Source: an uncultured archaeon (lineage in GTDB: Archaea; Thermoplasmatota; Penumbrarchaeia; JASLWR01). Taken from it: a stretch of 64,000 bases of DNA. The stretch spans positions 14,955-78,954 of the forward strand of contig CAYSHM010000013.1 in the NCBI GenBank assembly GCA_964430885.1, read 5' to 3'. Below are positions 7,035 through 63,841 of this stretch, piece after piece (the stretch's first letter is position 1; every line of letters starts with the position of its first letter). The position numbers were made by a program, and so were the translations under genes. A model generated the notes under the pieces. The model saw only the letters and a list, made by a program, of their open reading frames with translations, was not told where the DNA came from and ran no database searches.

Positions 7035-8186
7035 TTGGCTTTTCTTTTCTTCACAGGATTCAGCATGGCCTACTATTTTCAGACAGGCAGCATATCGGCT
7101 ATTCTTCCGTATCTCATCACTATTATGGGTGCTTCCTTCCTTATTCTTCTCACAGTCCATTACACGACCAGTCAGCAGGATAAGCTGATGAACACAGTTG
7201 CTTCCATCCTCTATGACAAGGCAATTGCCCTGGACAAGGAGAGAGAGAAGAACCAGGATGAATCCGGGGATATGATAGCACAGGGTGATTCCACAGCCAA
7301 GGGCAAGGGAATCATACCCATTGACAAACCCAGCGTAGATTTTGCCAATGTAGGGGGACTGGAACGTGTGAAGGAGGAGATCAGAAAGGCAATAATCTAC
7401 CCTTTCGATCATCCTGAGCTATACACACTTTACGGAAAGCGGATAGGCGAGGGTATACTTCTTTACGGCCCTCCCGGCTGCGGAAAGACCTTTATCAGCA
7501 GAGCAACTGCCGGGGAAGCAAAGGCTTCATTTATCAATATCAAGCTCAGCGATATCCTCAGCAAATGGGTAGGGCAGAGCGAAAGAAAGATCTCCGAGGC
7601 CTTCGAGACCGCCGCCAAGAATAAACCGGCTATTCTATTTTTCGACGAGGTGGACGCTCTGGGGTCCAAGAGAGGGGACATGTCCCAGGACCATACCAAC
7701 CGGCTGGTGAATTCCCTTCTGATGGAGATGGACGGTTTTGCGGGACCCAAAGAGCAGGTTCTGATACTAGCAGCCACCAATGAACCCTGGAATGTGGATT
7801 CCGCCCTCAAACGGCCGGGCAGGTTCAGCAAACTGCTTTTCATCCCCCCGCCTGATTTCGAGGCCCGATACCAGATCCTCAAGATACTTGCCGAGAACAA
7901 ACCGGTATCACCCCTAGTTGACCTGAAGATGATCGCCAAGAAGACCGCTGGATACTCAAGTGCCGATCTGGAGCAGATAGTAGAGGAGGCTGCGGACATA
8001 CCCCTCAAGGAGGCAATATCTGGTAAGAAGTCAAGAGCAATAAACGAGAGCGATTTTTTCAGGGTCCTCAAGAAGCGCTCTTCTTCCATCCTGCCCTGGT
8101 TCAAACACGCAAAGGAGCAGCTGATAATCAGAGACTGCAGGGATGAGTTCCAGGAACTTTGGAGATTTGTTAAAAAAATAAAATAG
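7035..8186 (+). CDS. AAA+ ATPase with two N-terminal transmembrane helices (single AAA module, no protease domain)
   Basis: Walker A GPPGCGKT, pore loop SKWVGQSE, Walker B FFDEVD, SRH ATNEPWNVDSALKRPGRF; hydrophobic N-terminal hairpin. Start uncertain (see findings). Confidence 0.85.
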   Translation: MAFLFFTGFSMAYYFQTGSISAILPYLITIMGASFLILLTVHYTTSQQDKLMNTVASILYDKAIALDKEREKNQDESGDMIAQGDSTAKGKGIIPIDKPSVDFANVGGLERVKEEIRKAIIYPFDHPELYTLYGKRIGEGILLYGPPGCGKTFISRATAGEAKASFINIKLSDILSKWVGQSERKISEAFETAAKNKPAILFFDEVDALGSKRGDMSQDHTNRLVNSLLMEMDGFAGPKEQVLILAATNEPWNVDSALKRPGRFSKLLFIPPPDFEARYQILKILAENKPVSPLVDLKMIAKKTAGYSSADLEQIVEEAADIPLKEAISGKKSRAINESDFFRVLKKRSSSILPWFKHAKEQLIIRDCRDEFQELWRFVKKIK

Positions 8187-8338
8187 CATTAAATCGAGCA
8201 AGGTGGAAAAATATTTAGTTCAGGTGTGATATAGGGAAGGCAAAAGTCCACGGATTCAGATCAATAATATTTCAATAATATCAGTAATATCAATAGGACT
8301 AATGATCCGGAATTAATACATTTCAGGGGAGACACAAG

Positions 8339-9070
8339 ATGCAACCGAGCAATATGGCATATGACAGGGCGATAACCGTTTTCTCGCCGGACGGCAGACT
8401 GTTCCAGGTGGAATACGCTAGGGAAGCCGTAAAGAGAGGAACGACTACTGTTGGATTGAAGTACGACAATGGTGTGCTTCTGATGATAGAGAAGAGGATA
8501 ACAAGCAGGCTTATCGAGGCGGCCTCCATCGAGAAGATATTCAGGATAGATGATCATGTAGGGTGCGCTACCTCGGGTCTGGTTGCCGATGCCAGGGTCC
8601 TTGTTGAGAGGGCCCAGCTCGAGGGACAGATACACAGGATAACCTACGGGGAGAAGACCACTGTGGATTCCCTTGTAAAGAAAATCTGCGATTTCAAACA
8701 GAACTACACCCAGTTCGGAGGCGTCAGACCCTTCGGGACTGCTCTTCTCATTGCAGGCTTCGATGAACAGGGACTGCATCTATACGAGACAGATCCCAGC
8801 GGAGCGGTGATCGCCTACAAGGCTGCTAGCATAGGGGCGGGACGTGATACGGTTGTCAGGGTTTTCGAGGAGAAATACAAGGACAACATGAGCAAGAAGG
8901 ATGCAATAGAGCTGGGTCTTGAGGCCCTCATGGAGTCCTCGGAGAAATCCGTGGAGACCGATAGGATCGAGATAGGTCTTATCACCAAGGACCAGAAGTT
9001 CAGTTTACTGTCCCCTGAAGAGGTTGCCAAGTATGCGAAGCCCTTCATGAAGAAGATTTCCAAGGAATGA
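8339..9070 (+). CDS. psmA: 20S proteasome alpha subunit
   Basis: [24 protein letters not shown] signature; GGVRPFG. Confidence 0.97.
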
Positions 9071-13664: not shown

Positions 13665-14648
13665 ATGAACAATGAGGTAATCGCAGGCGTTGATGTAGGC
13701 GGTACCAAGATATCTGTGTGTCTAGCGGATAGAAGAGGTATTCTTTTAAATTGCTTGGAGCCTACGGTTCTGGAGGGTCCGGCTGATTCTATACCTTGTC
13801 AGATAATAGGAATGATAGAGAGGCTTTGTATGGCTGCGGGTATGGAGAAGGGAGGTCTGAAGGGTGTGGGCGTGAGCTCCGCAGGCCCGTTCATGCTCAT
13901 TAACGGACTTATTAACTTGGTCTCACCTAACATATGCGGAGCTTTGGCTCCGGAGAGAGGCATTATTCCCAATGATTGGTCGGCTGTGGCTATTGAGAAA
14001 GTGCTGGCGAATGCCCTGCCAGAAGTTGTTATTCGGAATGACGCTGTTGCTGGAGCTGTTGCCGAGAGGACCTTGGGTTCGGCCAAGGATGCGGATAATC
14101 TTGTCTATGTGACCTGGAGCACAGGAATTGGTACTGGGGCATTTGTTGACGGCAGGCTTATTGAGGGGAAGAACGGCAACGCACCTCACGGAGGCCACAT
14201 ATTTCTTCTTGAAGAAGGTCCCTTGTGCGGATGCGGTAACAGGGGAGATCTGGAATCTCTCGCCTCGGGTACAGCCATCGCCAGGGATTACGGTCAGGAT
14301 GTTGATACTGCGGAGGTTTTCCGGCGGTATCATCTTGGAAACGATGATAAGGCAAAGGAAGTTATTGATAGGGCCGCCGGGCTTTTCGCTCGGGGTTTAG
14401 CATCCATCAATGCAGTGCTTGATACAAAGGTCATTGTAATAGGTGGAAGTGTGTTCCTGAACAACGTGGAACTTCTTTTACCCAAGATCAGGGATATTTT
14501 TTATTCCACATTTTCAGTGCTCTCAGATAACGTCGAAATTGTTCCCTCCACATTGGCATCCTACCTGCCGGACCTTGCGAGTCTGTCCCTTGCGATGGAT
14601 GATGATTGGTGCAAAAACTGGCATTCAAATAGACCTTGGCTTGATTGA
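13665..14648 (+). CDS. ROK family sugar kinase
   Basis: GVDVGGTKI, NDAVAGAVAE, STGIGTG, GH...CGCGNRGDLE (ROK zinc motif). Confidence 0.88.
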   Translation: MNNEVIAGVDVGGTKISVCLADRRGILLNCLEPTVLEGPADSIPCQIIGMIERLCMAAGMEKGGLKGVGVSSAGPFMLINGLINLVSPNICGALAPERGIIPNDWSAVAIEKVLANALPEVVIRNDAVAGAVAERTLGSAKDADNLVYVTWSTGIGTGAFVDGRLIEGKNGNAPHGGHIFLLEEGPLCGCGNRGDLESLASGTAIARDYGQDVDTAEVFRRYHLGNDDKAKEVIDRAAGLFARGLASINAVLDTKVIVIGGSVFLNNVELLLPKIRDIFYSTFSVLSDNVEIVPSTLASYLPDLASLSLAMDDDWCKNWHSNRPWLD

Positions 14649-14737
14649 TTTATTGAACCTTTCCAAAATCGGAGTACCTTTCAAATACGAAAATCATCTA
14701 TTATCACTGTGTAATATCTGAGTGATGATTTGATTTA

Positions 14738-16906
14738 TTGGTGATAATTATTAATTCAAACGGAAAATCAAAAGGAGGGTCATCCCGGATCCTGCCTATA
14801 GTTGTCTTGATCAGTCTGCTTCTAAGTCTGAGTCTGGCTCTGGCTTCGGAGGTTTTAACAGATAGGTCCGGTAATATGTGCCAGGGCTGCCATGGCAACA
14901 GATACAAGGAGTACTGCAACCTCCTGCCCCATGACGCCGAGAGCGATCTGCCTGCCAGCGCTGATGTGGACCTGACCATAACCATGAAGATGGCTGTAGA
15001 GGTGATAAGCACAGGCCAGTCAGGTCCGAGCAATTATTTCTTGGTGGATGTCCTACGTGTAACCCTGGGCAGTGTTAACGGGAAGGTGAACATTCCAGTT
15101 CCCCAGCAGGAGGCTAATAATTTATACCCTGGTGACCGGTCAGTATTCTCTTGGGATATCACGCCTACTGAAGCTGGGGATGAACAGCTGACTTTTTCCC
15201 TGTATGCTCACAATCCCCATAAATCATCAACCGCATCGGAGCTTTATTACCACGACCTCACCATTATCGGTCAGATGAGTGAACCGAGCTCTCCGCGTTC
15301 TTTGGAGCTCAGTGTGGGAAGGATATTTGCTCATCTGACCTGGGAAACTCCCCTGGATGACGGAGGTGATGATCTAATTAGATTCAATATCTACAGGGGG
15401 AACACACCTGGAAACGCAGTTCAATATGACACGGTTTCTCCCTTTACACTAGACTATAATGACACCGCTGTTTCACTGGGTGAGAGCTACTATTACCAGG
15501 TCAGCGCGGAGAACTCCCAGGGTGAGTCACCGTTATCTTCCGAAGTGTCCGGCGAACTTGTTTTCGCACCTTTAAGTCCACGGAACCTTCAGGGTGTGGG
15601 CGGGGACAACTATGTTCTGCTGTCATGGGACGAACCACTGGACGACGGAGGTGCGCATATTACAAGTTATAACCTTTACAGGGGAACTACCGAGAACGGT
15701 CTCTCACTGCTGGATTCCTTTGGTCCCTCAGAGCATTCTATCAACGACACATCTGTGACCAATAGCAATACCTATTATTATCACATTACCTGCGAGAACT
15801 CTCAGGGAGAATCCGATCCTGGTAGCATCATATCCATTACCCCCGAGAAGGATGTTTCGGTGCCCACCCCGCCCAGGGACCTTACCATAGAATGCGGAGA
15901 GGATTTTTGCCTTCTGAAATGGGATGAACCCGCTTATGACGGAGGAGCCCCGCTTATATTTTACAAGCTTTACAGGGGGCCGGCGGATGGTGAACGGGAA
16001 TTACTGATAAATATCGATGAAGTATATCTGGAATTTAATGATACCTCTGCTTACAGCGGAGTAGAGTATTCCTATCATGTGACCGTCGTGAATTCCGCAG
16101 GGGAATCACCACCGAGCACAATGGTAACCGGCAAACCCGATGTTGAAGTGAGTCTGCCTTCCCCTCCTGAGAACCTTACCTATACTGAGAGTGATGGGTA
16201 TGTTCATATATATTGGGAACCTCCGGCCAATTTCGGCGGGGGCCGTTTGATCAGTTTCAATCTCTACAGAGGGGAGGAACTGGCGTCTATCAGATTGTAT
16301 CGGAATATTCATCCTGACCTTAATGATTTCAATGATACCAACGTGACCAACGGCAAGGTGTTCAGGTACTATGTCACAGCACTGAACGAGAAATTCGAGA
16401 GCGGATCTACCAATATAATCTATACCCTGCCGGAAGAGGAGGATATTTCTGATGATCCCAAGGACGATCCTAAACCGCAGTTTCCTCCCTCTTTCCTCCT
16501 GACCATACCTGATGAAGAAACAATCGAGACAGGTCTGAACAACATTGTGCATTTTATGGTGAGGGGCAATGTAACGGCCAATATCACATGGTTTGTCGAG
16601 GGTGACGTGTATTCCAAGGGTTCGGAGATACTGGAATATCCTACCCTTTTACCAGGCACCTATGATATAGAGGTGGAGCTGGAGAGATACGGACTTACCG
16701 CTTCACACTCGTGGAAAATCAAGGTCCTGTACCGGACACCCGGGAATGATGACAGTAGCAATATTGGCAATGGCGGTTCCCAAGGAGATCCCGAGAGCGG
16801 TGGAAGTACTGATTACGGTCTCTTTGCCGACATGCTCTACATTTTGGGCGGTATAGGATTAATCGTCTTAACAGTGATACTTGTGATCTATTACAGGAGG
16901 CAGTAA
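14738..16906 (+). CDS. Exported CxxCH (putative c-type monoheme) protein with Ig-like domain, four fibronectin type III repeats and C-terminal membrane anchor
   Basis: Signal peptide ILPIVVLISLLLSLSLALA, CQGCH at ~14879-14893, four P..P..L...W..P..(D/F)GG....YRG...ND..V......Y.Y.V...N..GES repeats, C-terminal TM followed by YYRRQ. Confidence 0.8.
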   Translation: MVIIINSNGKSKGGSSRILPIVVLISLLLSLSLALASEVLTDRSGNMCQGCHGNRYKEYCNLLPHDAESDLPASADVDLTITMKMAVEVISTGQSGPSNYFLVDVLRVTLGSVNGKVNIPVPQQEANNLYPGDRSVFSWDITPTEAGDEQLTFSLYAHNPHKSSTASELYYHDLTIIGQMSEPSSPRSLELSVGRIFAHLTWETPLDDGGDDLIRFNIYRGNTPGNAVQYDTVSPFTLDYNDTAVSLGESYYYQVSAENSQGESPLSSEVSGELVFAPLSPRNLQGVGGDNYVLLSWDEPLDDGGAHITSYNLYRGTTENGLSLLDSFGPSEHSINDTSVTNSNTYYYHITCENSQGESDPGSIISITPEKDVSVPTPPRDLTIECGEDFCLLKWDEPAYDGGAPLIFYKLYRGPADGERELLINIDEVYLEFNDTSAYSGVEYSYHVTVVNSAGESPPSTMVTGKPDVEVSLPSPPENLTYTESDGYVHIYWEPPANFGGGRLISFNLYRGEELASIRLYRNIHPDLNDFNDTNVTNGKVFRYYVTALNEKFESGSTNIIYTLPEEEDISDDPKDDPKPQFPPSFLLTIPDEETIETGLNNIVHFMVRGNVTANITWFVEGDVYSKGSEILEYPTLLPGTYDIEVELERYGLTASHSWKIKVLYRTPGNDDSSNIGNGGSQGDPESGGSTDYGLFADMLYILGGIGLIVLTVILVIYYRRQ

Positions 16907-18235
16907 ATGAAGCGCATACTGGTCCTGGCCTCCCTCCTGCTTCTCCTTGCTTCCACACTAGCTGCCGGCTATTCCGAGACCCGAAGCAACTGTTATTCAT
17001 GCCACAGCTCATCTTCGGCTTCAGGCGGCTACAAATATGTTCTCCCTGAACTTCAGCTCGATGTGCCGGGATTTGTAGAGCCGGATACGGATTTCGTATT
17101 GAATATGAAACTACTTTTCTCCGATTACGAAATAGAAGAAGCTGAGTTCACCCTGAGTGCCGACGAGGACATGCTGGTCTTTACCGAAGATGTTGTGAAA
17201 CGTTCAGGTCTATCCAATGGTGATGAGGTTTCTATAGGGGGTAAGACCAAGGGTCAAGGCGTTGTGGAGATAAAGGTGATCGCAAGGGTAGATGTCTATT
17301 ATGACCATAATGTCGGCAGTTATGATGACAGGGGCACGGAGATACTTGAGAAGACCGCTGTTCTGACAGTCGGAAGTACATCGCTCATTCCCTCTCATTG
17401 GTCTATACTCCTTAAAAAGGATCCAGTCCCGGTTCAATTGAAGGCCAAGGAAGATATTACCGATATTGAAATAACGGCACCTTACGGAGTTCATGTACTA
17501 CCCCAGACAATTGCCAAGCTGGATTCTGGAAAGACCGCAGTCATTACCCTGGAAGCCGACAGCAGTTCTAGCATTAATGAAAATATTATTATCACCTGGA
17601 ATGAAGGAGGCAACCAAAGGGCTTTATCCATCAATGTGGTTCACAGGGCTTCATCTGGTTCAGGAAGCGACGGCCTTCACTTGATGGGCAGAATAACTGG
17701 AATAGCCTCAATATTCCTTCTTTTGGCGTCACTGATATTCGGGGGGCTCTGGAATTCACGAAATGCACTGAAAAAAATGATGTCAGCCAAAACAAGGATA
17801 AAGATTCACTGCGGAATCTCATGGTTCCTCTTTGCCCTTGCATTATATCACGGGATAATCCTTCTTGTCGGCCCCTATAATTCGCAGATCTGGGAGAGGC
17901 CGGTGATAATTGGTGATATTGCAGCCTTTGGTATGCTGATCGCAGCCCTGTCAGGAGGTTTGATGAAATGGATGATCAGGAAGTTTGGTAGAAAGGCGTG
18001 GCGGATCATACATCTGTATTCAACCCTAGGAGCTCTTGTTCTGGGAACCCTTCACGGCATTCAGATGGGGACTGATACGGATTTCATAAGGGAAACACCC
18101 CCCCTTCGGATATTTATCATGGCTGTGGTTATAATTGGAAGTATTATCTCACTTATAATGCTGCACAGAAGTAATAAGACCAAAAAAGCAGTAACCCCAA
18201 GGGGTGATCATAGGGTGAAGTTCAGGTCAAATTGA
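16907..18235 (+). CDS. Exported CxxCH domain plus Ig-like domains fused to a ferric-reductase-like (cytochrome b) transmembrane domain
   Basis: Signal peptide, CYSCH at 16991-17005, about five C-terminal TM helices with paired His (KIHCGIS/LYHGII and WRIIHLYS/TLHGIQMG). ATG abuts the upstream TAA. Confidence 0.78.
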   Translation: MKRILVLASLLLLLASTLAAGYSETRSNCYSCHSSSSASGGYKYVLPELQLDVPGFVEPDTDFVLNMKLLFSDYEIEEAEFTLSADEDMLVFTEDVVKRSGLSNGDEVSIGGKTKGQGVVEIKVIARVDVYYDHNVGSYDDRGTEILEKTAVLTVGSTSLIPSHWSILLKKDPVPVQLKAKEDITDIEITAPYGVHVLPQTIAKLDSGKTAVITLEADSSSSINENIIITWNEGGNQRALSINVVHRASSGSGSDGLHLMGRITGIASIFLLLASLIFGGLWNSRNALKKMMSAKTRIKIHCGISWFLFALALYHGIILLVGPYNSQIWERPVIIGDIAAFGMLIAALSGGLMKWMIRKFGRKAWRIIHLYSTLGALVLGTLHGIQMGTDTDFIRETPPLRIFIMAVVIIGSIISLIMLHRSNKTKKAVTPRGDHRVKFRSN

Positions 18236-18313
18236 TCATCAAATATTCTGAATATAATAGATTGATCAGGTCTATTAATAGAATGGATAACACATAAAGG
18301 TTGGATTGGTAAA

Positions 18314-18760
18314 ATGGCACATTCACTGGATTCGGCAATGATTTACATACACCCGCCCTTGGCCATTATCGGCTATGTTCTTATCCTTCTGAGCACAGTT
18401 TTCATTGGCCGGGAACTTTTCCTAAAAAAGCAATTCAAAGCTACAAAGAAGATCCTCTATACATCCTGGATCATTAACCTTCTGGGTGTAGTTACCGGTG
18501 CAATATGGGCACAGTGGGCCTGGGGTTCATACTGGTCCTGGGATCCCAAGGAGACGGTGTCTCTCATTATGTTCGTGTTTGTGGTAATAGGACTCCTTTT
18601 TTACGAAAACCCCATCTTCAATATCAAATGCGACGGAAGCTGCCCGGTACAGAACCATCGGAAACATATCTCGTTTGGACTCCATATAGCTGCAATCATA
18701 ACGATATTTATCAACATATGGATAACCCTTGGGAATTTCGGTCTGCATTCATACGGCTGA
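18314..18760 (+). CDS. ccsA: Minimal cytochrome c biogenesis (heme-handling WWD) protein, CcsA/CcmF-like
   Basis: [24 protein letters not shown] (WWD motif), C-terminal GLHSYG; four TM helices in 148 aa. Confidence 0.85.
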
Positions 18761-18798
18761 TCTGCCCTAATCTATCAGGACCTTTTCGAGGATGAAAT

Positions 18799-19824
18799 AT
18801 GTTTAGACGATTTCGAGATATCTGGCACCCGGAGAACTATCACGGAACGAAAAATAAAAAAAAATTCTTTGAAGGCTGGTACTTCAAGCTTGTTTCCGCA
18901 GATCTAAAGAAAAAATTCGCATTCATACCGGGTATATCCCTGTCCCCTGAAGACCCACACTGCTTCATCCAGGTTCTGGAAGGTGGCAGCAGCCAGACCA
19001 ATTATGTGCGCTATTCCATTGATGAATTTCAGATAGGCAAAAAATTCGATTTGACCCTGGGTAAGAGCCGTTTCAACATCGACGGCCTGGAGCTGGATAT
19101 CCTGGATGAGTTCATAACGATCAAGGGTGTAATTAACTTCAAGGATCAATATAAATGGCCCGGGACCTTCTTTTCACCCGGGGCCATGGGACCCTACCAG
19201 TTTGCGCCTTTCATGCAGTGTAACCATGGCATACTGAGCATGGACCATGTAATAACGGGTAAATTGGCGGTGAATGGGGAGAGCGTGGATTTAACCGGAG
19301 GCCGGGGTTACCTCGAAAAGGACTGGGGCCGGTCATTTCCACGGGCGTGGATATGGTCCCAATGCAATGATTGGGAGTCGCCGGCCCCCACCCCCGATCC
19401 CACACCTACGTCGGTGAGTATATCTGTTGCTACAGTGCCTTGGATGTGGAGCTATTTCACAGGTTTCATTATCGTTGTGATGGCCGGTGGGAAATTCTAC
19501 AATTTCTCCACCTATGCAGGAGGGAGGATAAAACGACTGAGGGTCAGAGATTCCTTGGTCGAGCTTAAGATCGTAAGTAAAGATATCGTTCTGGAAGCAA
19601 TTCTAATAAAGAGTCGCGGAGGAGAACTAGCTAGTCCGGTAAAGGGCATGATGGAGGGACGAATAACCGAGAGCCTTGATTCCAGGTGCAGGATCGCCCT
19701 TTACAGGCTGAGCAGGAATGGATCGGGGGAACGGCAGATTATGTTCAGGGGCAAGGGTGACCCGGCAGCCCTGGAAGTTGTGGGAGATATGGATGAGCTG
19801 AGGTCTGGATTAGGGTTGAAATAA
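18799..19824 (+). CDS. Tocopherol cyclase family protein
   Basis: FFEGWYFKL, MGP...APFMQC.HGILSM.H, GYLEKDWGRSFP.AWIW.QCN motifs. Confidence 0.85.
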   Translation: MFRRFRDIWHPENYHGTKNKKKFFEGWYFKLVSADLKKKFAFIPGISLSPEDPHCFIQVLEGGSSQTNYVRYSIDEFQIGKKFDLTLGKSRFNIDGLELDILDEFITIKGVINFKDQYKWPGTFFSPGAMGPYQFAPFMQCNHGILSMDHVITGKLAVNGESVDLTGGRGYLEKDWGRSFPRAWIWSQCNDWESPAPTPDPTPTSVSISVATVPWMWSYFTGFIIVVMAGGKFYNFSTYAGGRIKRLRVRDSLVELKIVSKDIVLEAILIKSRGGELASPVKGMMEGRITESLDSRCRIALYRLSRNGSGERQIMFRGKGDPAALEVVGDMDELRSGLGLK

Positions 19825-19939
19825 CATGAAATTTAGAATATTGAATATTTCCAGGTTCGAGATAACTTTGATAATGTTAATAATCTAACAAAAAGTATTA
19901 CCTCTGTATAATACATTTCCAATATTGAAGGTGAAATAT

Positions 19940-21733
19940 ATGAAGTACATCTGCGAGGTTTGCGCCTACGAACATGAAACGGAAGACGATAATTGGGCCG
20001 AATTGGAGGATGGTTTCTCCTGTCCCGTTTGCGGCTCGCCGAAAAGCTATTTCAAGGTAGTTGTAGAGAGAAAGACCGAAGAAGATGGTACTGAAACCGT
20101 ATCACAGGAGACCACCTATTTCGAGTGCACTGTATGTGCCCACAAGCACGAGGCCCAGCATGGTTTTCTGGACGATGAAGGTGAATTTACCTGTCCGGTA
20201 TGCCAGTCACCGAAGAACTACTTCACCCATTGCGAACCTGTGCTGACCAGTGTGAAGATCGATAAAGGGGATGAGGATTCTAGCTCTGGAAGCTCACAAG
20301 GAGTGATTGTGTATGAATGCGAGATCTGCGGTTATATCGTGAAAGCTGGACCTGACTGGAAGGGTCTGAAGGACGGTTTTTTATGTCCAATTTGCCAGTC
20401 CCCTAAATCCTTTTTCAAAGTGAAAAATTCTGAGTTGCCCACAATCGCCTTATCGGCATCATCAACATCACCAACACAGACCACTGCCCAAGAAGATACC
20501 GGGAAGGAAGCTACTCAGCCCATACCTGCACCTCCTACATCAACCACAGAGAAATATTTTCTCGATATTAAGATGATGGCGGATTCCGGCAGATCCATAA
20601 TCGAGCCCATGAGAACCCGTGAGAATGTGATAGGCTGGGAGGACATACTTATAAAAGGCAGCCAGCTCTACAAACTGCCCCTCCTGGAAGAGGTTTCTGT
20701 CAATACTTCCACTGTAATCGGACCAAAGGCAAAGAAACCCCTTATAATCGAAGCTCCAATATTCATTACACATATGTCATTTGGAGCGCTATCAAGGGAA
20801 GCCAAGATAGCCCTGGCCAAGGGTAGCGCAGCAGTAAAGACCGCAATGTGCTCAGGGGAAGGGGGGATTCTGGAGAAGTCCTTCGATAGTTCCTACAGAT
20901 ATATATTCGAATACGTTCCCAATCTATACGGCGTTACCGAGGAGAACCTGAAAAGGGTGGACGCTGTCGAAATAAAATTCGGTCAATCCACCAAACCCGG
21001 TATGGGAGGCCATCTGCCGGGGGAGAAGGTCACAGAGGAGATATCCGAGGTCAGGGGTTTCGCAAAGGGAAAGGATATCATCAGTTCGGCCCATTTCTCG
21101 GATATAACAAATAAAGAGGAACTCAAGGCTAAGGTTGACTGGCTCAGGGAGACCTCAGGAGGAAGGCCCATCGGCATCAAGATCGCAGCAGGCCACATCG
21201 AGAAGGACATGGGAATAGCGGTATATGCAGGTCCCGATTTCATTACCGTGGACGGAAGGCCAGGCGGGACTGGGGCATCAGCCAAATACGTAAAGGCGGC
21301 AGCATCAATGCCCACATTATTTGCCCTTCACAGAGCAAGAAAGTTCCTGGATGAGAGCGGTCATGATGATATTTCACTAATCATGACAGGGGGTTTCAGG
21401 GTGTCCCCGGATTACGCCAAGGCCCTGGCAATGGGAGCGGATGCAGTTGCCATAGGTCAGGCAGCGGTCATGGCCCTAGGATGTTTTCAGCACAGAATAT
21501 GCCATACAGGAAAATGCCGGGCGGGCATCATGACCCAGGATCTGGAATTGCGCAAAAACCTCGTTGTAGATGTGTCGGCAAAAAGGGTGGAGAATTACCT
21601 TAAGGTCTGCATCAAGGAACTAAAGGATTTCGCACGATTAACAGGCAATGATGATGTGCACTGTATGTCGATAGAGGACCTTATGACAGTCAATTCGGAG
21701 ATATCGGACCATACGGATATCGAGCACGTATAG
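19940..21733 (+). CDS. FMN-binding glutamate synthase family protein (archaeal GltB2-like) with three N-terminal rubredoxin-like domains
   Basis: Three CxxC...CPxCxSPK units; MSFGALS, SGEGG, EIKFGQSTKPGMGGHLPGEKVT, [3Fe-4S] motif CFQHRICHTGKC. Confidence 0.88.
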   Translation: MKYICEVCAYEHETEDDNWAELEDGFSCPVCGSPKSYFKVVVERKTEEDGTETVSQETTYFECTVCAHKHEAQHGFLDDEGEFTCPVCQSPKNYFTHCEPVLTSVKIDKGDEDSSSGSSQGVIVYECEICGYIVKAGPDWKGLKDGFLCPICQSPKSFFKVKNSELPTIALSASSTSPTQTTAQEDTGKEATQPIPAPPTSTTEKYFLDIKMMADSGRSIIEPMRTRENVIGWEDILIKGSQLYKLPLLEEVSVNTSTVIGPKAKKPLIIEAPIFITHMSFGALSREAKIALAKGSAAVKTAMCSGEGGILEKSFDSSYRYIFEYVPNLYGVTEENLKRVDAVEIKFGQSTKPGMGGHLPGEKVTEEISEVRGFAKGKDIISSAHFSDITNKEELKAKVDWLRETSGGRPIGIKIAAGHIEKDMGIAVYAGPDFITVDGRPGGTGASAKYVKAAASMPTLFALHRARKFLDESGHDDISLIMTGGFRVSPDYAKALAMGADAVAIGQAAVMALGCFQHRICHTGKCRAGIMTQDLELRKNLVVDVSAKRVENYLKVCIKELKDFARLTGNDDVHCMSIEDLMTVNSEISDHTDIEHV

Positions 21734-21798
21734 AAATAAAAATGGATAAACGAATCGATGTTAGAGTACGAAATATAACACAAAAAGGAGAAGATAGA

Positions 21799-22320
21799 AT
21801 GAGCAAGACCAAAGAAAACCTGAAAGCGGCCTTTGCGGGAGAATCCCAGGCCCGGAACAAGTATACCTACTATGCAGAGGTTGCGGAGAGAGAAGGATAT
21901 CATTACATTGCAAAGGTATTTTTAGAGACCGCCGAGAACGAGAAACAGCACGCCATGGACCATTTCAAGATGCTGGGAGAGCTTGGGACCACCGAGGATA
22001 ACCTCAAGGCGGCCATTAGCGGAGAGCATTACGAGACCGTGGAGATGTATCCCCAGTTCGCAAAGGATGCCCAGGAGGAAGGAGATATGCTCTCGGCAGC
22101 CCTTTTCAGAATGATCGGCAGGGTGGAGGAGCAGCACAGGGAAAGATACAAAAAATTGTTGGATATGGTTCAGAACGGCACGGTCTTCAAGAGGGACAAA
22201 CCTATCAGGTGGAAATGCGCAAAATGCGGCTACATCCACGAGGGAACAGAGCCTCCCATGAAGTGTCCCGCCTGCAAGAATCCCCGGGAGTACTACGAGC
22301 CCGATGCACTTGACCTGTAG
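21799..22320 (+). CDS. rbr: Rubrerythrin
   Basis: AFAGESQARNKY, ExxH di-iron motifs (EKQH, EEQH), C-terminal CxxCGYIH...CPAC. Start placed at ATG 21799 after an AGGAG RBS. Confidence 0.93.
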   Translation: MSKTKENLKAAFAGESQARNKYTYYAEVAEREGYHYIAKVFLETAENEKQHAMDHFKMLGELGTTEDNLKAAISGEHYETVEMYPQFAKDAQEEGDMLSAALFRMIGRVEEQHRERYKKLLDMVQNGTVFKRDKPIRWKCAKCGYIHEGTEPPMKCPACKNPREYYEPDALDL

Positions 22321-31975: not shown

Positions 31976-34135
31976 CTATTTTTCATCGAACAATCCCATC
32001 AGGGCAGTACCTGAGATCTTGGTGACGTATACCATGCGCCCGGTCTCCACGTCTATTGCTACTGAGAACATGTCGCCCTGCTCCCAGGCGCTTCCTTTCC
32101 AGAATATCCATCCGAATCTTGCCGAGGGCACCACGATACCGGTTATCTGCTGAAGTACCTGGGCCGCCGGAAGCTGGGATGATTCAACTCCTCTGGCTAT
32201 AGTGATGCTTGAGTCTGATAGGTCTAAATCGCCGTTACGGTCAAAGAGCTCATCTCCTGCCATCTCATCTCCTGAGACTATGTCAACAGCCCCTGAAAGG
32301 GTAATGCCTTCGTCATCCATCTCCGATCTTTTCATCCTGGCCCATCCTTCAAGCTTTCCGTAGTCCTTGTCTATCTCGTACACCGAGGAGTAGGGATTCA
32401 GGGGATTTATTGACTTGGTAATGTTCTTTGCCATCCTGGCGGAGTATATGTGTTCAGGCCATTGGAAATCCTCCACTTCGTCCTTATCCTTTCCTTCGTT
32501 CTCCTTCTGCCATTCCCCGTAATCCTCATAATATGGCTCAAGTTCCTTCTCACTCATGTAATCCGAAAGAGTGATGTTCCAGTAATGGCTGCCTGCGGTT
32601 TTCTGCGGGTCCAAGGCGGATAAAGTTGCATTGTAGGTTGCTTTTGTCACAAAAGAGGTCGGGAATTGCCTTGCAAAATCACCCATGGCTGAACTGTTTT
32701 CTACCATGTATTCTAGGGCAGTATCCGGTGCTATCTGAATGGACTGATCCGGATTTGTAGCTTCATCTAGATCGGCATTTTCGAACATGTAACCGCCTTT
32801 TGGTATCATATCCCAATCCTCGTATTCACCCTGAGGATGCCGCTCAAGGAATTCTCCAACAGAATTCTCCCAGGATATGGGGCTTGAACCTCTGCTGTAG
32901 CCGCTTGTAAGTACCCTGTCCTGTTCAATTATGATCCAACCGGTATGGTTCTCGCTGTCCCAGCTTGTATTGGTACGGAGGAATGTCCTGGTGGGATACG
33001 GTGTCTTGCTTGAAAGCCATATTGTCTGGGTATAATCAAGAAAACCCCAGTATTTTCTTGTAATGTTCACTCTGAGAGAAGGTATGCCCTCGACATTTTC
33101 CATATCTTCAGCGGACCAGTTGTAGAAACCCTGGTCGAGAGCTCCATCATAATTTCCCTGGTAATATACACTGCCGTTGTCTCCCACGGACAGGGCCCGG
33201 TCCTTGTAGATCTGGTCTTCTAGAGTAGGCAGGGTCTCTTCCTCGGGATCTGAATAGGTTCGGACATAACCTTCGTATTCAATTGGAACGGGCACAGTAG
33301 CTCTCGGAAGCTGGTCAACAGACATTGTCCCGCTGTTAACTGCCTTGATCTGTATTCCTCCGGCCAGTTCGGTGTATTCCGAGCGGTCGGCACTGAATGA
33401 TCCGTCAACCGTGACCTTGCCGGAATCGGTGGTATCAACAATCACAGTTAGAGCTCCGTCCGCCACCATCCTCTCCTGTACACAGCTGTGGATCTTTCCA
33501 TATCCCGACTCTGCATTCACCGGTCCGTAGACCTTGAAATCCCACTGACCGTCGCCGGTTATGGTGTACCTCTCATATTCTCCGCTGCTCTTGTTCTCGG
33601 AATAGAGCTCTGCAAAAACCGTGAAATCATACCGGTAGTCATCACCTATGTGAAGAGGGGGTTGACGCACGGATAATTCTTCATCTCCGGTATTGTTAAT
33701 GGGTAGAAGAATGGATGTAAGGGTCAGCTTGACGGTTGTCCCGGATATTTCAGTGATAAGTACCTGTATGTCGTATATGTCGTCCTTATCAGTATCCACA
33801 TATTCGGGGATGTCCAGAGTAGCAGTAACCTCTACGGGATCGGACTCAATAATTAGAGTTACCTCATCGCCTTCTATATCGGTTATGGTAACCGAATGAG
33901 TAACCGCGCCTACGACCATTTCCTCGGTCTCGCCCAGTTTAATTCCCTCGGAGGTGGAATCCCCCTGCTGGATGGGATCATTATCTCCCGGCCCAGGACC
34001 TGGTTTATCGTCATCGTCGTCATCTTGAAGTTCCCCGTCCTTTTCCCAGACGTTTTCAAATAGGCCGAAATAGACGACGTTGACCAATAGGCTAGCTATA
34101 CAGATGATGATGATTAGTGTCTTTATCTTGCTCAT
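31976..34135 (-). CDS. Hypothetical N-anchored acidic surface protein, tandem paralog B
   Basis: 719-aa ORF with N-terminal TM; colinear with 34200-36365. Confidence 0.8.
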   Translation of the reverse strand: MSKIKTLIIIICIASLLVNVVYFGLFENVWEKDGELQDDDDDDKPGPGPGDNDPIQQGDSTSEGIKLGETEEMVVGAVTHSVTITDIEGDEVTLIIESDPVEVTATLDIPEYVDTDKDDIYDIQVLITEISGTTVKLTLTSILLPINNTGDEELSVRQPPLHIGDDYRYDFTVFAELYSENKSSGEYERYTITGDGQWDFKVYGPVNAESGYGKIHSCVQERMVADGALTVIVDTTDSGKVTVDGSFSADRSEYTELAGGIQIKAVNSGTMSVDQLPRATVPVPIEYEGYVRTYSDPEEETLPTLEDQIYKDRALSVGDNGSVYYQGNYDGALDQGFYNWSAEDMENVEGIPSLRVNITRKYWGFLDYTQTIWLSSKTPYPTRTFLRTNTSWDSENHTGWIIIEQDRVLTSGYSRGSSPISWENSVGEFLERHPQGEYEDWDMIPKGGYMFENADLDEATNPDQSIQIAPDTALEYMVENSSAMGDFARQFPTSFVTKATYNATLSALDPQKTAGSHYWNITLSDYMSEKELEPYYEDYGEWQKENEGKDKDEVEDFQWPEHIYSARMAKNITKSINPLNPYSSVYEIDKDYGKLEGWARMKRSEMDDEGITLSGAVDIVSGDEMAGDELFDRNGDLDLSDSSITIARGVESSQLPAAQVLQQITGIVVPSARFGWIFWKGSAWEQGDMFSVAIDVETGRMVYVTKISGTALMGLFDEK

Positions 34136-34199
34136 GAGAAAACCCTATTCCTTTCCGATTTTATACTGAATACAATTTTTTAATGTATCTATCTGGTAA

Positions 34200-36365
34200 T
34201 TATTCGTCGAACATACCCATAAGAGCAGTTCCGGATATTTTTGTTATATACACCATGCGCCCTGTCTCAACATCTACCGCCGCCGAGAACATATCGCCCT
34301 GTTCCCAGGCGCTGCCTTTCCAGAATATCCATCCGTAATTGGCAGACGGCATAACAATACCCGTAATCTGCTGAAGGACCTGAGCAGCGGGAAGCTGAGA
34401 TGATGTTGCTCCTTTTGCGACCACAATACCCAGATCGTTCATGTCCAGATCACCGCTTCTGTCAAAGAGTTCGGTACTAGCCATATCATCACCCGCAACA
34501 ATATCCACCGCACCTGAGAGTGTGCATCCTTCATCATCCAACTCGGAGCGTTTGATCCAGGACCAGCCTTCTTCACGGGTATAATCCTTGTCTATCTCTA
34601 TCTCAGCAGAGTAAGGATCAAGAGGATTGATGGATTTGGTGATGTTCTTGGCCACCCTTGCAGCATAGAGATGCTCGGGCCAATGAAACCGTTCTTCTTC
34701 CGGAATGTCCTCCCACTCCTCTCCCTCATGCTCTTCTTCCCATTCTTCATAATCTTCGAATATGGGCTCCAATTCGTCCCAGCTCATATAATCTGCAAGT
34801 GTTATATTCCAGTAATGGCTTCCTGCATTGTTCTGAGGGTCCAGATTTGAAAGGTTGGCCCAATAAGTTGCTTCCGTTACCAGGGTATTGGAGAACTCAT
34901 CGGTGAATTCACCCATGCCGGTACTGTTCCTAATCATAAAATCCAAGGCATCTTCCGGCGACATATGCACTGCAAACTCAGTGTTTATTGGATCTTCCAA
35001 TTCAGTATTATCGAATTTATAGCCTCCCTTTGGTATCTTATCCCACTTGAGGAATTCACCATCGGGATGTGTATCTTGGAAGGTAGCTTCAGTATCTTCC
35101 CAGGGTATTGGGTCAGATCCCCTGCTGTAACCGCTTGTCAGGGTTCGGTCCTGTTCTATTATTATCCAGCCCTTTTCATTTTCCTCATCCCAGGTAGTGT
35201 TGGTTCGCAGAAAAGTTCTGGTAGGGTAGGGTGTCTTGCTAGATATCCATACCGTCTGGATAAAATCCAGAAATCCCCAGTACTGACGGGTGATGTTGAT
35301 CTTCAGGGACGGGATTCCCGCAATATTTTCCATTTGCTCAGCTGTCCAGTTATAATATCCCTGGGAGACCGCTTCCTCGTAAGGACCCTCGTAGTATACA
35401 CTTCCCTCATCTCCCACCGTAATATCCTTGTCCTCATATATCTGATCCTCAAGGGTTGGCTGGACCTCTTCAGTGGGATCGGGATATGTTCGGACATAAC
35501 CTTCATACTGTATAGGTACAGGAACTGTAGCTCTGGGAAGCTGGTCGATGGCCATCTCACCCTGGTTCACGGCCTTTATTAAAGTCCGGCTTTTCAGTTC
35601 AGAATATTCCGATCTGTCCGCACTGAAGGAACCGTCAACAGAGACCTTGCCGGTATCGGGTGTGTCCACTACAACAGTGAGGGCCCCGTCAGCGACCATC
35701 CTTTCCTGTACACAGCTGTGGATCTCTCCATAACCCGACTCTGCATCCACCGGGCCGTATACCTTGAAATCCCACTGTCCGTTGCCGGTGATGGTGTAGC
35801 GTTCGTATTCACCGCTTGTCTTATTCTCTGCATAAAGCTCGGCGAAAACAGAGAAATCGTATCTGAAATCATCTCCCATATGAAGTGACGGTTGACGTAC
35901 CGATATAACTTCGTTCCCCGTATTGTTGATGGGAACTAGGATGGATGTCAGCGTCAATTTCACCGTTGTTCCGGAAATATCTGTTACAAGTACCTGTATA
36001 TCATAAATTTCATCTTTATCGGTGTCCACGTACTCCGGGATATCCAAAGTGGCAGTAACCTCCACTGGGTCGGATTCAATTATAAGGGTGACCGTATCAC
36101 CATCTATACCGGTTACGGTAACCGAATGGGTCACGGCACCAACCACCATTTCCTCCGTCTCACCCACTTTGATGCCTTCTGAGGTGGACTCTCCCTGCTG
36201 GATCGGATCGTTATTGCTAGGCCCTGAACCCGGTTTCTCATCATCATCATCATTATTCAGCTCTTCTTCCTTTTCCCACACGTTATCAAAGATACCGAAA
36301 TAGACGACGTTGATTAGAAGACTAGCGATACAGATTATTATTAGCAAAGTTTTGATCTTGCTCAT
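34200..36365 (-). CDS. Hypothetical N-anchored acidic surface protein, tandem paralog A
   Basis: 721-aa ORF sharing e.g. SSKTPYPTRTFLRTNT and GWIFWKGSAWEQGDMFS with paralog B. Confidence 0.8.
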   Translation of the reverse strand: MSKIKTLLIIICIASLLINVVYFGIFDNVWEKEEELNNDDDDEKPGSGPSNNDPIQQGESTSEGIKVGETEEMVVGAVTHSVTVTGIDGDTVTLIIESDPVEVTATLDIPEYVDTDKDEIYDIQVLVTDISGTTVKLTLTSILVPINNTGNEVISVRQPSLHMGDDFRYDFSVFAELYAENKTSGEYERYTITGNGQWDFKVYGPVDAESGYGEIHSCVQERMVADGALTVVVDTPDTGKVSVDGSFSADRSEYSELKSRTLIKAVNQGEMAIDQLPRATVPVPIQYEGYVRTYPDPTEEVQPTLEDQIYEDKDITVGDEGSVYYEGPYEEAVSQGYYNWTAEQMENIAGIPSLKINITRQYWGFLDFIQTVWISSKTPYPTRTFLRTNTTWDEENEKGWIIIEQDRTLTSGYSRGSDPIPWEDTEATFQDTHPDGEFLKWDKIPKGGYKFDNTELEDPINTEFAVHMSPEDALDFMIRNSTGMGEFTDEFSNTLVTEATYWANLSNLDPQNNAGSHYWNITLADYMSWDELEPIFEDYEEWEEEHEGEEWEDIPEEERFHWPEHLYAARVAKNITKSINPLDPYSAEIEIDKDYTREEGWSWIKRSELDDEGCTLSGAVDIVAGDDMASTELFDRSGDLDMNDLGIVVAKGATSSQLPAAQVLQQITGIVMPSANYGWIFWKGSAWEQGDMFSAAVDVETGRMVYITKISGTALMGMFDE

Positions 36366-63445: not shown

Positions 63446-63841
63446 ATGAGCGATATAGGAGAATTGTACAAGAGTGCCGACTGGAAAAATGAAAAGCATG
63501 TGCCTGCTATAGAGGTTGCCGGGCCCGTGAAGAAGACCGAGATAGTGACCATAAGCGCTGCTGTGGGCAAGGAGATCGCCCATCCCAATACAACCGGGCA
63601 TCATATATCCTGGCTGGAGCTGTATTTCCTCCCGGAGGGAAGCAAGAACCCATACATGCTGAGCCGTTTCGATTTCGTATCCCACGGAGCTTCACCCAGA
63701 GGTCCGGATACAAGCGAGGTATATACTGAGCCTTCTGTTACAGCCAAGGTGAAGCTGGGCGGAAGCGGAAAAGTGATAGCCACGTCCTATTGCAATATCC
63801 ATGGGCTGTGGACCGGGTCAATGGATCTGGTTGTGGAATAG
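63446..63841 (+). CDS. Superoxide reductase-like protein (neelaredoxin / class II SORL)
   Basis: EKHVP, HPNTTGHHI.W, CNIHGLW iron ligands. Confidence 0.9.
   Translation: MSDIGELYKSADWKNEKHVPAIEVAGPVKKTEIVTISAAVGKEIAHPNTTGHHISWLELYFLPEGSKNPYMLSRFDFVSHGASPRGPDTSEVYTEPSVTAKVKLGGSGKVIATSYCNIHGLWTGSMDLVVE

Follow-up and report, generated by a model that had tools for sequence, protein, structure and literature searches.

The 64,000-nucleotide stretch of DNA analysed here, hereafter called the window, covers positions 14,955 to 78,954 of contig CAYSHM010000013.1 (contig C13 of the genome designated G000) and originates from an uncultured archaeon of the Penumbrarchaeia in the Thermoplasmatota. The G000 assembly comprises 3.13 Mb in 44 contigs and is 91.6% complete. 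The window carries a cassette of three genes, P1, P2 and P3, encoding a stalked protein with a CxxCH motif, a second CxxCH protein that ends in a membrane domain with four histidines, and a very small protein with the WWD motif of haem-handling proteins (a "mini-WWD" protein). P1-P2-P3 is a conserved archaeal module, and within one genome family the mini-WWD gene and the System I machinery for cytochrome c maturation are alternatives for the same substrates.

Gene layout of the cassette

As proposed in an initial annotation of the locus, the open reading frame (ORF) list contains three co-oriented genes on the plus strand, of which the first two are separated by a gap of 0 bp, the stop codon of P1 abutting the ATG of P2 (Table 1). 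The gap between P2 and P3 is 78 bp. Across the G000 genome, each of the three family profiles matches solely the gene in the window. Moreover, CxxCH occurs in 21 ORFs of at least 100 amino acids in this assembly, but it lies directly behind a signal peptide in P1 and P2 only.

P2 and P3 share one reading frame, with TGA codons at 18233 and 18263 between them. A single gene expressed by TGA read-through was considered and rejected because the homologues in related genomes are separate genes that often overlap, and because the extensions of longer P2 relatives are acidic tails with no WWD domain. For instance, the homologues at locus L041 overlap (7206-8462 and 8452-8868) and are hence in different frames. 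The shared frame is therefore read as a coincidence.

Table 1 Features of the P1-P2-P3 cassette (positions in the window; residue counts for P3 refer to a set of 121 aligned mini-WWD proteins)
Feature	Position	Strand	Remarks
P1 gene	14738..16906	+	722 amino acids, TTG start
CQGCH, predicted covalent haem site, P1 residues 48-52	14879..14893	+	Cys, Cys and His invariant in 11/11 N-domains
P1 His161 (AHNPH), candidate distal haem ligand	15218..15220	+	Invariant; aligned by hhalign to the His of P2 YYDH
Four-Fn3 stalk of P1	15284..16447	+	Repeats start at residues 183, 278, 376 and 474; Pfam fn3
P1 C-terminal transmembrane anchor, residues 699-717	16832..16888	+	Hydropathy
P2 gene	16907..18235	+	442 amino acids, ATG start
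CYSCH, predicted covalent haem site, P2 residues 29-33	16991..17005	+	Invariant in 19/19
Di-haem-b-type membrane domain, P2 residues 261-395	17687..18091	+	Ferric_reduct; four His
P2-P3 spacer	18236..18313		A+T-rich
P3 gene	18314..18760	+	148 amino acids; PF01578
P3 His13 (IHPP), P-His1 equivalent	18350..18352	+	His in 120/121
WWD motif, P3 residues 65-80	18506..18553	+	W65, W74, W76, D77 and E80 in 121/121
P3 His145 (C-terminal GLHSYG), P-His2 equivalent	18746..18748	+	His in 120/121

P1 and the shared predicted haem domain

The ORF, its hydropathy and the Pfam fn3 match (73.3 bits; cut-off 25) bear out the earlier description of P1 as a protein with a signal peptide, a CQGCH motif, four Fn3 repeats and a C-terminal transmembrane (TM) segment. 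The two hydrophobic segments lie at residues 18-36 and 699-717. Between them, the haem domain is followed by the four Fn3 repeats, one more immunoglobulin-like (Ig-like), beta-rich domain and a Gly/Ser-rich linker that leads to the anchor, and the protein contains 8 N-x-S/T sequons. In the 11 aligned N-domains of the P1 family, Trp139 is invariant together with Cys48, Cys51, His52 and His161. The genes in the P1 position of other genomes encode an N-terminal CxxCH and a C-terminal hydrophobic segment in 9/9 cases each. The stalk varies by lineage: Fn3 repeats are found in the family of the window, PKD and Big_5 domains in G040 and unassigned Ig-like repeats in family f7. Thus, the label "Fn3-stalked" applies to the family of the window and does not hold elsewhere.

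The N-terminal domains of P1 and P2 are homologous according to hhalign (probability 98.2%, E 5.6e-14), which aligns CxxCH with CxxCH and P1 His161 with P2 His134 (YYDH). They are thus paralogues and form one Ig-like family of predicted haem domains that is new to description. When compared with solved structures, the P1 haem-domain profile (A4) gave no match at E<=10 and the best match of the P2 profile (A5) was an alpha-2-macroglobulin MG domain with an E value of 0.054. Together with the conserved His that follows about 100-110 residues after it, the CxxCH motif would allow both domains to hold a bis-His haem c.

P2 and its four-histidine membrane domain

P2 starts with a signal-like segment (residues 4-22), and apart from the two Cys of CYSCH it has one further Cys only (Cys302). 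About 220 residues without a Pfam match follow the motif and precede the membrane domain. The sequence agrees with the architecture that had been suggested, namely a signal peptide, CYSCH, an Ig-like spacer and a four-His membrane domain, and the assignment of the latter to the ferric-reductase or cytochrome b561 kind was also supported. P2 itself scores 22.6 bits against Pfam Ferric_reduct (PF01794), below the cut-off of 28, over positions 1-120 of the 121 profile positions, and among 19 members of its family 13 match Ferric_reduct (E<=0.01, best 8.1e-8), five match Ni_hydr_CYTB and three DUF4405. In the alignment of these 19 proteins, Cys29, Cys32, His33, His301 and His315 are invariant, His369 and His383 nearly so, and His134 is common.

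The P2 family is sizeable and uncharacterised. A profile search of 1.84 billion representatives returned 716 proteins at E<=1e-3, of which 269 reach E<=1e-10 and 95 reach E<=1e-30. From the matches listed, the window protein and homologues collected earlier, a set of 119 full-length proteins (at least 380 amino acids) was assembled, of which 117 keep all four membrane His, 107 keep Arg297 and 101 have CxxCH within the first 120 amino acids. The N-terminal CxxCH is also present in the P2 homologues of 18/18 fetched genomic regions, one of which (L054) has the homologue split into two ORFs. Other searches were less productive: a word-indexed protein search found 7-8 P2 relatives only, and a search of genome contigs yielded no locus with the single sequence and three loci with a narrower alignment. 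In close P2 relatives (P0004-P0008 of family f1), the protein is extended on the cytoplasmic side by a low-complexity, extremely acidic tail of about 100-200 residues, which is missing from the P2 protein of the window.

His301 and His315 lie on one helix and His369 and His383 on another, each pair being spaced i, i+14. On the basis of hydropathy and charge, the loops 282-299 and 354-364, which are both rich in Lys and Arg, were placed in the cytoplasm. Thus, His301 and His369 would lie close to the cytoplasmic side of the membrane and His315 and His383 close to its external side, as expected for the classic two-pair arrangement of di-haem b proteins. We regard P2 as probably being a di-haem-b electron conduit.

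P3, a stand-alone WWD core

It had been noted that the third gene carries a WWD motif and GLHSYG, and this was confirmed. P3 matches the Pfam family Cytochrom_C_asm (PF01578) with 62.8 bits (cut-off 29.9), but the match covers profile positions 65-175 of 212 only. His13 aligns to the His in the YIHVP motif of the CcmC chain 7f02_C and also to CcmF and CcsA, and His145 aligns to the GLHSYG or GMHSYA motifs with which solved CcsA and CcsBA chains end. The P3 profile matches residues 627-777 of 25vk_A (CcsA), 183-309 of 6zmq_A (CcmF), 55-168 of 7f02_C (CcmC) and 781-900 of 7s9y_A (CcsBA), which are exactly the helices around the WWD site. A crude hydropathy analysis of P3 revealed three segments (14-32, 84-102 and 119-137), and a fourth at about 48-68 can be deduced from the alignment with the solved chains. 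The four core TM helices are described as alike among WWD proteins (PMC10663686). The WWD core corresponds to TM2-5 of CcmC and TM6-9 of CcsA (PMC6299221), and the TM domains (TMD) 2-5 of CcmC have been reported to form a haem channel beneath the WWD site (PMC12077264).

Several observations set the mini-WWD proteins apart from CcsA. The column of the transmembrane histidine (TM-His) of CcsA ("LHxRF", 18 residues after WD) contains His in 0/121 mini-WWD proteins; it is occupied by Val, Leu, Ile, Met, Ala, Thr, Phe or Trp, and any His in the equivalent helix was found in 3/121 proteins. Moreover, P3 scores far below the NCBIfam cut-offs for CcsA (TIGR03144, 48.8 vs 187.6 bits), CcmC (TIGR01191, 44.4 vs 186 bits) and CcmF (31.3 vs 569 bits). 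WWD proteins from metagenomes had TIGR03144 as best match in 45/45 cases; 35 of them reach the cut-off and the others score 98.7-169.4 bits. A metagenome scan with the mini-WWD alignment recovered ordinary CcsA nearly throughout, with one mini-WWD gene among 80 loci (L059, 131 amino acids, on a 1-kb contig). A word-indexed search restricted to 81-259 amino acids found 333 relatives of P3, and the 120 that were listed are all 117-148 amino acids long and all match PF01578. Some are labelled CcsA in Bathyarchaeia records.

A quick maximum-likelihood tree, calculated from 143 columns for 92 core regions, places the mini-WWD proteins in one clade apart from CcsA (Shimodaira-Hasegawa-like approximate likelihood ratio test, SH-aLRT, 95); CcmF (99) and CcmC (100) form clades as well. 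The mini clade groups with archaeal CcmF at an SH-aLRT value of 89 on long branches, and this sister relation is weak. P3 itself has a 15-residue insertion with the motif CDGSC in a predicted cytoplasmic loop (residues 99-113, positions 18608-18652), which is unique among 28 aligned mini-WWD proteins.

Conservation of the cassette

The relatives set comprised the 41 nearest genomes including G000. Among them, P2 has matches in 30 genomes, the P1 haem-domain profile in 25 and the mini-WWD protein, defined by at least 97 bits and an open frame of 110-180 amino acids, in 22. P2 is present in 22/22 genomes with a mini-WWD gene, and a mini-WWD gene was found in 0/11 genomes lacking P2. P1 occurs in 18 of the 22 mini-WWD genomes and is missing from G005, G025, G032 and G039. 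According to the coordinates, the order P1-P2-P3 on one contig is kept in 16 genomes (G000, G002, G007, G016, G017, G018, G019, G020, G021, G023, G024, G026, G028, G029, G035 and G040). In a broader set of 301 Thermoplasmatota genomes, 31 mini-WWD loci were identified in 25 genomes, and 29 of these loci directly abut a P2-family gene; the loci that do not are those of G005, where the contigs do not exceed 3.1 kb, and of contig C150 in G028. Thus, the co-occurrence that the initial annotation had asked for is found as conservation of the trio.

In the fetched regions, a P3 homologue follows the P2 homologue in 14/18 cases. Some genomes also contain a second pair, P2'-P3', without P1 (L051-L053). 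The WWD motif of P3' is degenerate (WGRPFAFDPKE) at L051 5341-5757 and L052 5043-5519 (G019 and G035), with both P-His kept, and a glycosyltransferase gene follows the pair at L051. In G046, a single protein of 1383 amino acids contains the P1 haem domain at residues 42-171 and P2 at 963-1374. Its protein cluster has five members of 311-1383 amino acids from several sources. The existence of such a fusion adds to the case for a joint function of P1 and P2.

Alternation with System I

P3 is the only PF01578 match in G000, and neither ResB nor CcmE was matched in this genome. CcmF and CcmC queries from a sister genus match P3 only, and CcmE and CcmB queries gave weak generic matches. The search for other maturation genes, which had also been suggested, thus left the mini-WWD gene as the only recognisable one. 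ResB was found in 0/41 relatives. CcmE was found in three of them (G001, G003 and G014), which possess long CcmF-like WWD genes and no mini-WWD gene, and in 0/22 mini-WWD genomes.

Both CcmE genomes that were examined (G001 and G003) contain a System I cluster. The cluster of G003 begins with a small CxxCH protein resembling the N-domain of P2, CcmF (926 amino acids) and two unknown genes; it continues with a 915-amino-acid Fn3-stalked CxxCH protein of the P1 family and CcmA, and it ends with a 228-amino-acid ORF on the opposite strand without a Pfam match, CcmC and CcmE. In G001, the equivalent position between CcmC and CcmA holds a 227-amino-acid ORF that matches Pfam CcmB. From the P1-like gene among the ccm genes of G003 we conclude that a canonical maturation system handles the P1 family as a cytochrome c. 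Moreover, P1-P2 pairs without a mini-WWD gene occur in G051, where a CcmF-like gene is located on the same fetched stretch, and in G069, where a long WWD gene is found on another contig. The alternation of the mini-WWD gene with System I, with the same substrates and within one genome family, is the strongest argument for P3 as a maturation factor, and we are fairly confident that P3 matures P1 and P2. The idea that the P2 membrane domain is a mere CcsB-like partner of P3 was rejected because this domain is kept in System I genomes.

Proposed electron route and a possible link to iron uptake

In the proposed mechanism, P3 would hold haem at the outer face of the membrane, where the thiols in the CxxCH motifs of P1 and P2 would be joined to the haem vinyls, and it would thereby act as a one-protein cytochrome c synthase in place of System I. 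Two b haems would be bound by P2, one by His301/His369 near the cytoplasm and one by His315/His383 near the outside. P1 would carry its haem domain on top of a stalk of glycosylated Fn3 repeats that is anchored by the C-terminal helix. Electrons from a cytoplasmic or membrane donor might then cross the membrane via the two b haems and pass through the haem c of P2 and that of P1 to an external acceptor. The best candidate by context would be Fe(III), which would be reduced to Fe(II) for uptake by FeoB.

The proposed link to iron comes from the genomic context. Seven of the 19 genomes whose flanks were examined (G035, G019, G018, G026, G029, G016 and G021, from four genera of family f7) have a co-oriented feoB gene upstream of P1, and in three genomes of one genus a small membrane protein follows feoB. 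At L055 (2451-2735, G026), a 95-amino-acid protein with the look of a winged-helix regulator and a Cys-rich C-terminus is encoded between feoB and P1. This protein presumably resembles FeoC, in which case the upstream genes would form a feo operon beside the cassette. The feoB context, the ferric-reductase-type domain and the analogy to the CYBDOM proteins discussed below together favour extracellular Fe(III) reduction that feeds Fe(II) uptake, and of the roles listed in the initial annotation the context fits metal reduction better than redox sensing. Assimilatory ferric reduction as the role of the cassette is nevertheless put forward tentatively, as a possibility rather than a probability.

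The main alternative to Fe(III) reduction for uptake is a fermentative electron outlet, that is, a dissimilatory sink in which the b/c-haem conduit dumps fermentation electrons on extracellular acceptors such as minerals, humics or partner cells, to the benefit of redox balance or energy and not of iron nutrition. This corresponds to the extracellular electron transfer named in the initial annotation. The architecture would be the same in both cases. An external outlet would be useful to an organism without cytochrome bd, COX1 and NuoH matches that encodes rubrerythrin and desulfoferrodoxin, and the trio is not located beside feoB in the window or in 12 of the 19 genomes examined. However, each protein has one c haem only, and the known long-range electron conduits use multihaem chains. 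Moreover, no energy-conserving partner or quinone pathway was found (MqnA/D, NuoH), and the adjacency of feoB in seven genomes points to assimilation. We therefore consider such a sink unlikely.

Haem supply

HemB (PF00490) and HemC (PF01379) were not found in G000. Among the 41 relatives, each was matched in one and the same genome (G038), which lacks the cassette, and the control searches matched 11/14 reference genomes. Since no HemB or HemC was found, haem must come from elsewhere, and it is probably salvaged. The two enzymes were also not found in the three System I genomes (G001, G003 and G014); thus, salvaged haem can reach a machine that loads from inside, which suggests that haem-dependent functions run on salvaged haem across the whole class. 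In G003, a COX2-like cupredoxin gene lies beside the System I cluster. With only P1 and P2 having CxxCH behind a signal peptide, and without matches to cytochrome bd or COX1, P1 and P2 may be the only haem proteins of the organism, and salvaged haem may go into their assembly. Other archaea, too, have been inferred to be haem auxotrophs that retain haem proteins (PMC8351635), and a study of marine sediment bacteria reports haem as a growth factor (PMC11139205).

The scarcity of HemB and HemC (one of 41 relatives) also speaks for a different reading of the cassette, namely haem acquisition, in which environmental haem would be captured by the N-domains of P1 and P2. P3, either alone or together with the membrane domain of P2, would then transfer it into the membrane or the cell through a reversed CcsBA/CcmC-type channel. 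WWD proteins bind haem outside and the core of P3 corresponds to the CcmC haem channel (PMC12077264), a stalked surface receptor suits scavenging, and an iron-uptake gene adjoins the module in seven genomes. By contrast, CxxCH is a signature of irreversible thioether attachment that suits a cofactor and not a relay, and the P1-like gene of G003 lies inside a cluster for haem attachment. Furthermore, the four-His domain of P2 is kept in System I genomes and is thus not merely a partner of P3, and obvious cytoplasmic haem consumers were not detected (no cytochrome bd or COX1 found). Haem acquisition therefore appears improbable.

For haem attachment by P3, the side from which haem arrives is of interest. 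P3 is without the TM-His site of CcsBA and without the TMD4/5/6-CcmD acceptance domain of CcmC, but the helices forming the hydrophobic haem channel mapped in CcmC are retained (PMC12077264). "Export-free" haem loading was discarded as a firm conclusion because the retained helices are those of the mapped channel and delivery from inside is possible. It is conceivable, at somewhat less than an even chance, that a stand-alone four-helix WWD protein of about 130 amino acids is a complete cytochrome c synthase, and hence a minimal route beside Systems I and II that would dispense with CcmE, CcsB and TM-His and load scavenged haem onto two dedicated surface cytochromes in archaea making no tetrapyrroles. 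If this is true and haem is taken from outside or from the outer leaflet, haem attachment would proceed without haem export.

Genomic neighbourhood of the cassette

The base composition of the cassette region is unremarkable, and no Rfam family was matched within 14000-20000. A scan for sigma-70 promoters and terminators returned nothing decisive; it uses a bacterial model that is not meaningful for an archaeon. The ORFs on the minus strand across the cassette are short overlaps of P1, P2 and P3. The flanking genes in the window say little about the function of the cassette: a ROK kinase gene and the leucyl-tRNA synthetase gene are located upstream, and other neighbours encode an Rrp4-like exosome subunit and the Arg- and Pro-tRNA synthetases. 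A tocopherol-cyclase-like gene (18799-19824; PF14249, 66.7 bits), which is unusual in an archaeon, lies directly downstream of P3; it does not adjoin the cassette in G002, and its product might act on a quinol-type lipid. Farther away on the minus strand (31979-36365), two adjacent genes encode proteins of 719 and 721 amino acids without a Pfam match beside FtsX/ABC transporter genes.

The gene at 19925-21733 encodes a protein with a glutamate-synthase-type flavin mononucleotide domain, rubredoxin-like matches at the N-terminus and three CxxC...CxxC modules as judged by reading the sequence. It is followed by a rubrerythrin gene (21742-22320), and a desulfoferrodoxin gene is located at 63446-63838. 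Taken together, the three genes look like the oxygen-defence set of an anaerobe. Outside the window, a flavin reductase gene and a nitroreductase gene precede the paralogous P2'-P3' pair in G016, an arrangement that recalls the pairing of Fre and MsrQ.

These genes bring to mind redox repair or detoxification of the MsrQ-MsrP type, in which P2 would feed electrons to surface proteins, reactive oxygen or metal species and P1 would be the working haem protein. The P2 membrane domain is indeed of the YedZ/MsrQ-type short FRD kind, rubrerythrin and the rubredoxin-fused flavoprotein are encoded nearby, and the gene order in G016 would fit. However, the oxidative-stress neighbours are not conserved in relatives, the conserved distal His argues for a six-coordinate electron-transfer haem and not a catalytic one, and the cassette contains no MsrP-like partner, which makes such a role very improbable.

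Overall interpretation and significance

The reading that we prefer, with moderate confidence and on the basis of sequence and gene context, is that P3 is a cytochrome c synthase of four helices and serves a transmembrane electron conduit of b and c haems, which is probably a ferric reductase and would be built with salvaged haem. Several observations weigh against it. Regarding the cofactor, HemB and HemC are absent from the matches in 40/41 relatives, which leaves its supply unexplained. Regarding maturation, a thioredoxin-CcdA fusion of 928 amino acids is encoded outside the cassette (G000:C19:30890-33676, minus strand); in this protein, a large extracellular domain and a membrane helix are combined with a thioredoxin-like domain (WCPGC) and with a membrane domain of the CcdA/DsbD type, and it could keep exported Cys, including the CxxCH thiols, reduced. 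As to the donor, no MqnA/D, NuoH, cytochrome bd or COX1 matches were found in G000, and a donor is thus not evident. The haem proteins themselves also deviate from the expected picture: the Ferric_reduct score of P2 is below the Pfam cut-off of 28, CxxCH is not found in the first 120 residues of 18/119 full-length P2-family proteins, and the candidate distal ligand of P2 is His in only 54/85 family members with an aligned N-domain. Moreover, a second Ig-like domain separates the haem domain of P2 from its membrane domain in sequence, and the haem at the tip of the stalk, five domains away, is wired to the membrane only if the stalk bends or P1 and P2 meet. Finally, the link to feoB is confined to four genera of one family, whose members are kin and not independent, and feoB is not located in the window but on contig C9 of G000.

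The reading in the initial annotation is supported in part. Its core, in which dedicated cytochromes are served by a small haem-attachment protein of their own and b and c haems provide a route across the membrane, is upheld. CxxCH is conserved in both large proteins, as is a candidate distal His, which is invariant in 11/11 P1 domains but less constant in P2. By contrast, the term "self-contained" was too strong in view of the missing HemB and HemC matches and the thioredoxin-CcdA fusion on another contig. The "membrane electron pool" found no counterpart in G000 among MqnA/D and NuoH matches, and the Fn3 stalk is not universal.

Cytochrome c maturation serves as a model for the movement and attachment of haem, and the known bacterial and archaeal machines are large or composed of several proteins. 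A natural WWD core of 117-148 amino acids that appears to replace System I for the same substrates would define the minimal need for haem presentation and thioether formation, and its small size makes it directly accessible to biochemistry and structural biology. In addition, the module would contribute a new Ig-like haem-c domain and a prokaryotic counterpart of those eukaryotic ferric reductases in which an extracellular haem domain sits on a di-haem-b membrane domain. It would also point to a surface redox chemistry that depends on haem although the organisms, uncultured marine archaea of wide occurrence, are seemingly unable to make it. This is relevant to the sharing of haem as a resource and to the cycling of iron where seawater and sediments are low in oxygen.

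Comparison with known systems

The components of the cassette belong to known superfamilies, and within the full-text literature searched no published description of the cassette or of a small stand-alone WWD protein was found. P3 shares with CcsA and CcsBA a WWD motif of the type WGxYWxWDPKE, P-His1 before the first core helix and the C-terminal GLHSY[GA] with P-His2. However, CcsA and CcsBA have about 260-940 amino acids and the mini-WWD proteins 117-148 amino acids with four predicted helices. P3 also differs in lacking TM-His (0/121) and in having no ResB/CcsB (PF05140) match in its own genome or in the 41 relatives. Dedicated CcsA isoenzymes are known from Wolinella (NrfI, CcsA1 and CcsA2), which are full-length fusions of the CcsBA type in hosts that also have general machinery. 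As in the cassette, the haem lyase gene lies beside the cytochrome gene that it serves, but P3 is the only WWD gene in its genome. The names CcsA1 and CcsA2 appear in PMC6299221.

CcmC resembles P3 in possessing WWD and two P-His and in lacking TM-His (PMC10663686), and the helices retained in P3 are those of the TMD2-5 haem channel of CcmC (PMC12077264). Streamlined archaeal System I consists of CcmABCEF (PMC9084895). By contrast, P3 is without TMD1 and TMD6, and CcmAB, CcmE and CcmF are missing as well. CcmC, a protein of six helices, cooperates with CcmAB(D) and passes its haem on to CcmE, whereas P3 has four predicted helices and, unlike CcmC, would itself have to join haem to the apocytochrome.

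For the haem domains, the closest description is that of cluster 38, a group of predicted beta-sandwich monohaem cytochromes c from Ignicoccus, Pyrolobus and Hyperthermus (Kletzin et al. 2015; PMC4429474). As described there, its members have CxxCH at about position 28-32, a beta-sandwich body and a downstream conserved His111 as candidate distal ligand, and like P1 some of them have a C-terminal TM helix. In contrast to the organisms with the cassette, their hosts have System I, and the available text of that study reports neither a fusion to a membrane b-haem domain nor a small WWD gene. According to the same text, System I was the only system found in Archaea, and the two "Thermoplasmatales" single-cell candidates in its supplement may be homologues of P1 or P2.

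The membrane domain of P2 resembles YedZ/MsrQ, the bFRE proteins and prokaryotic cytochrome b561 in having two His pairs on two helices and no fused NAD(P)H/FAD domain. It differs from them in its conserved core of four helices, with a fifth only in the family of the window, and in its fused extracellular domain with the predicted haem c. The available part of one survey lists four archaeal FRE members only and mentions no cytochrome c fusion (PMC3591440). The logic proposed for P2 is also that of the eukaryotic CYBDOM proteins, in which a DOMON domain is combined with cytochrome b561, so that a beta-rich haem domain outside the cell sits on a membrane domain with two b haems. For instance, the CYBDOM protein HYP1 has been reported to transfer electrons across the plasma membrane and to reduce ferric and cupric substrates (PMC10784544). 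Since no DOMON or b561 Pfam match was obtained for the N-domain, P2 and 19 relatives, CYBDOM is an analogue only and not a relative. CYBDOM proteins use ascorbate as the donor. A further difference is the outer haem of P2, which would be a covalently bound haem c.

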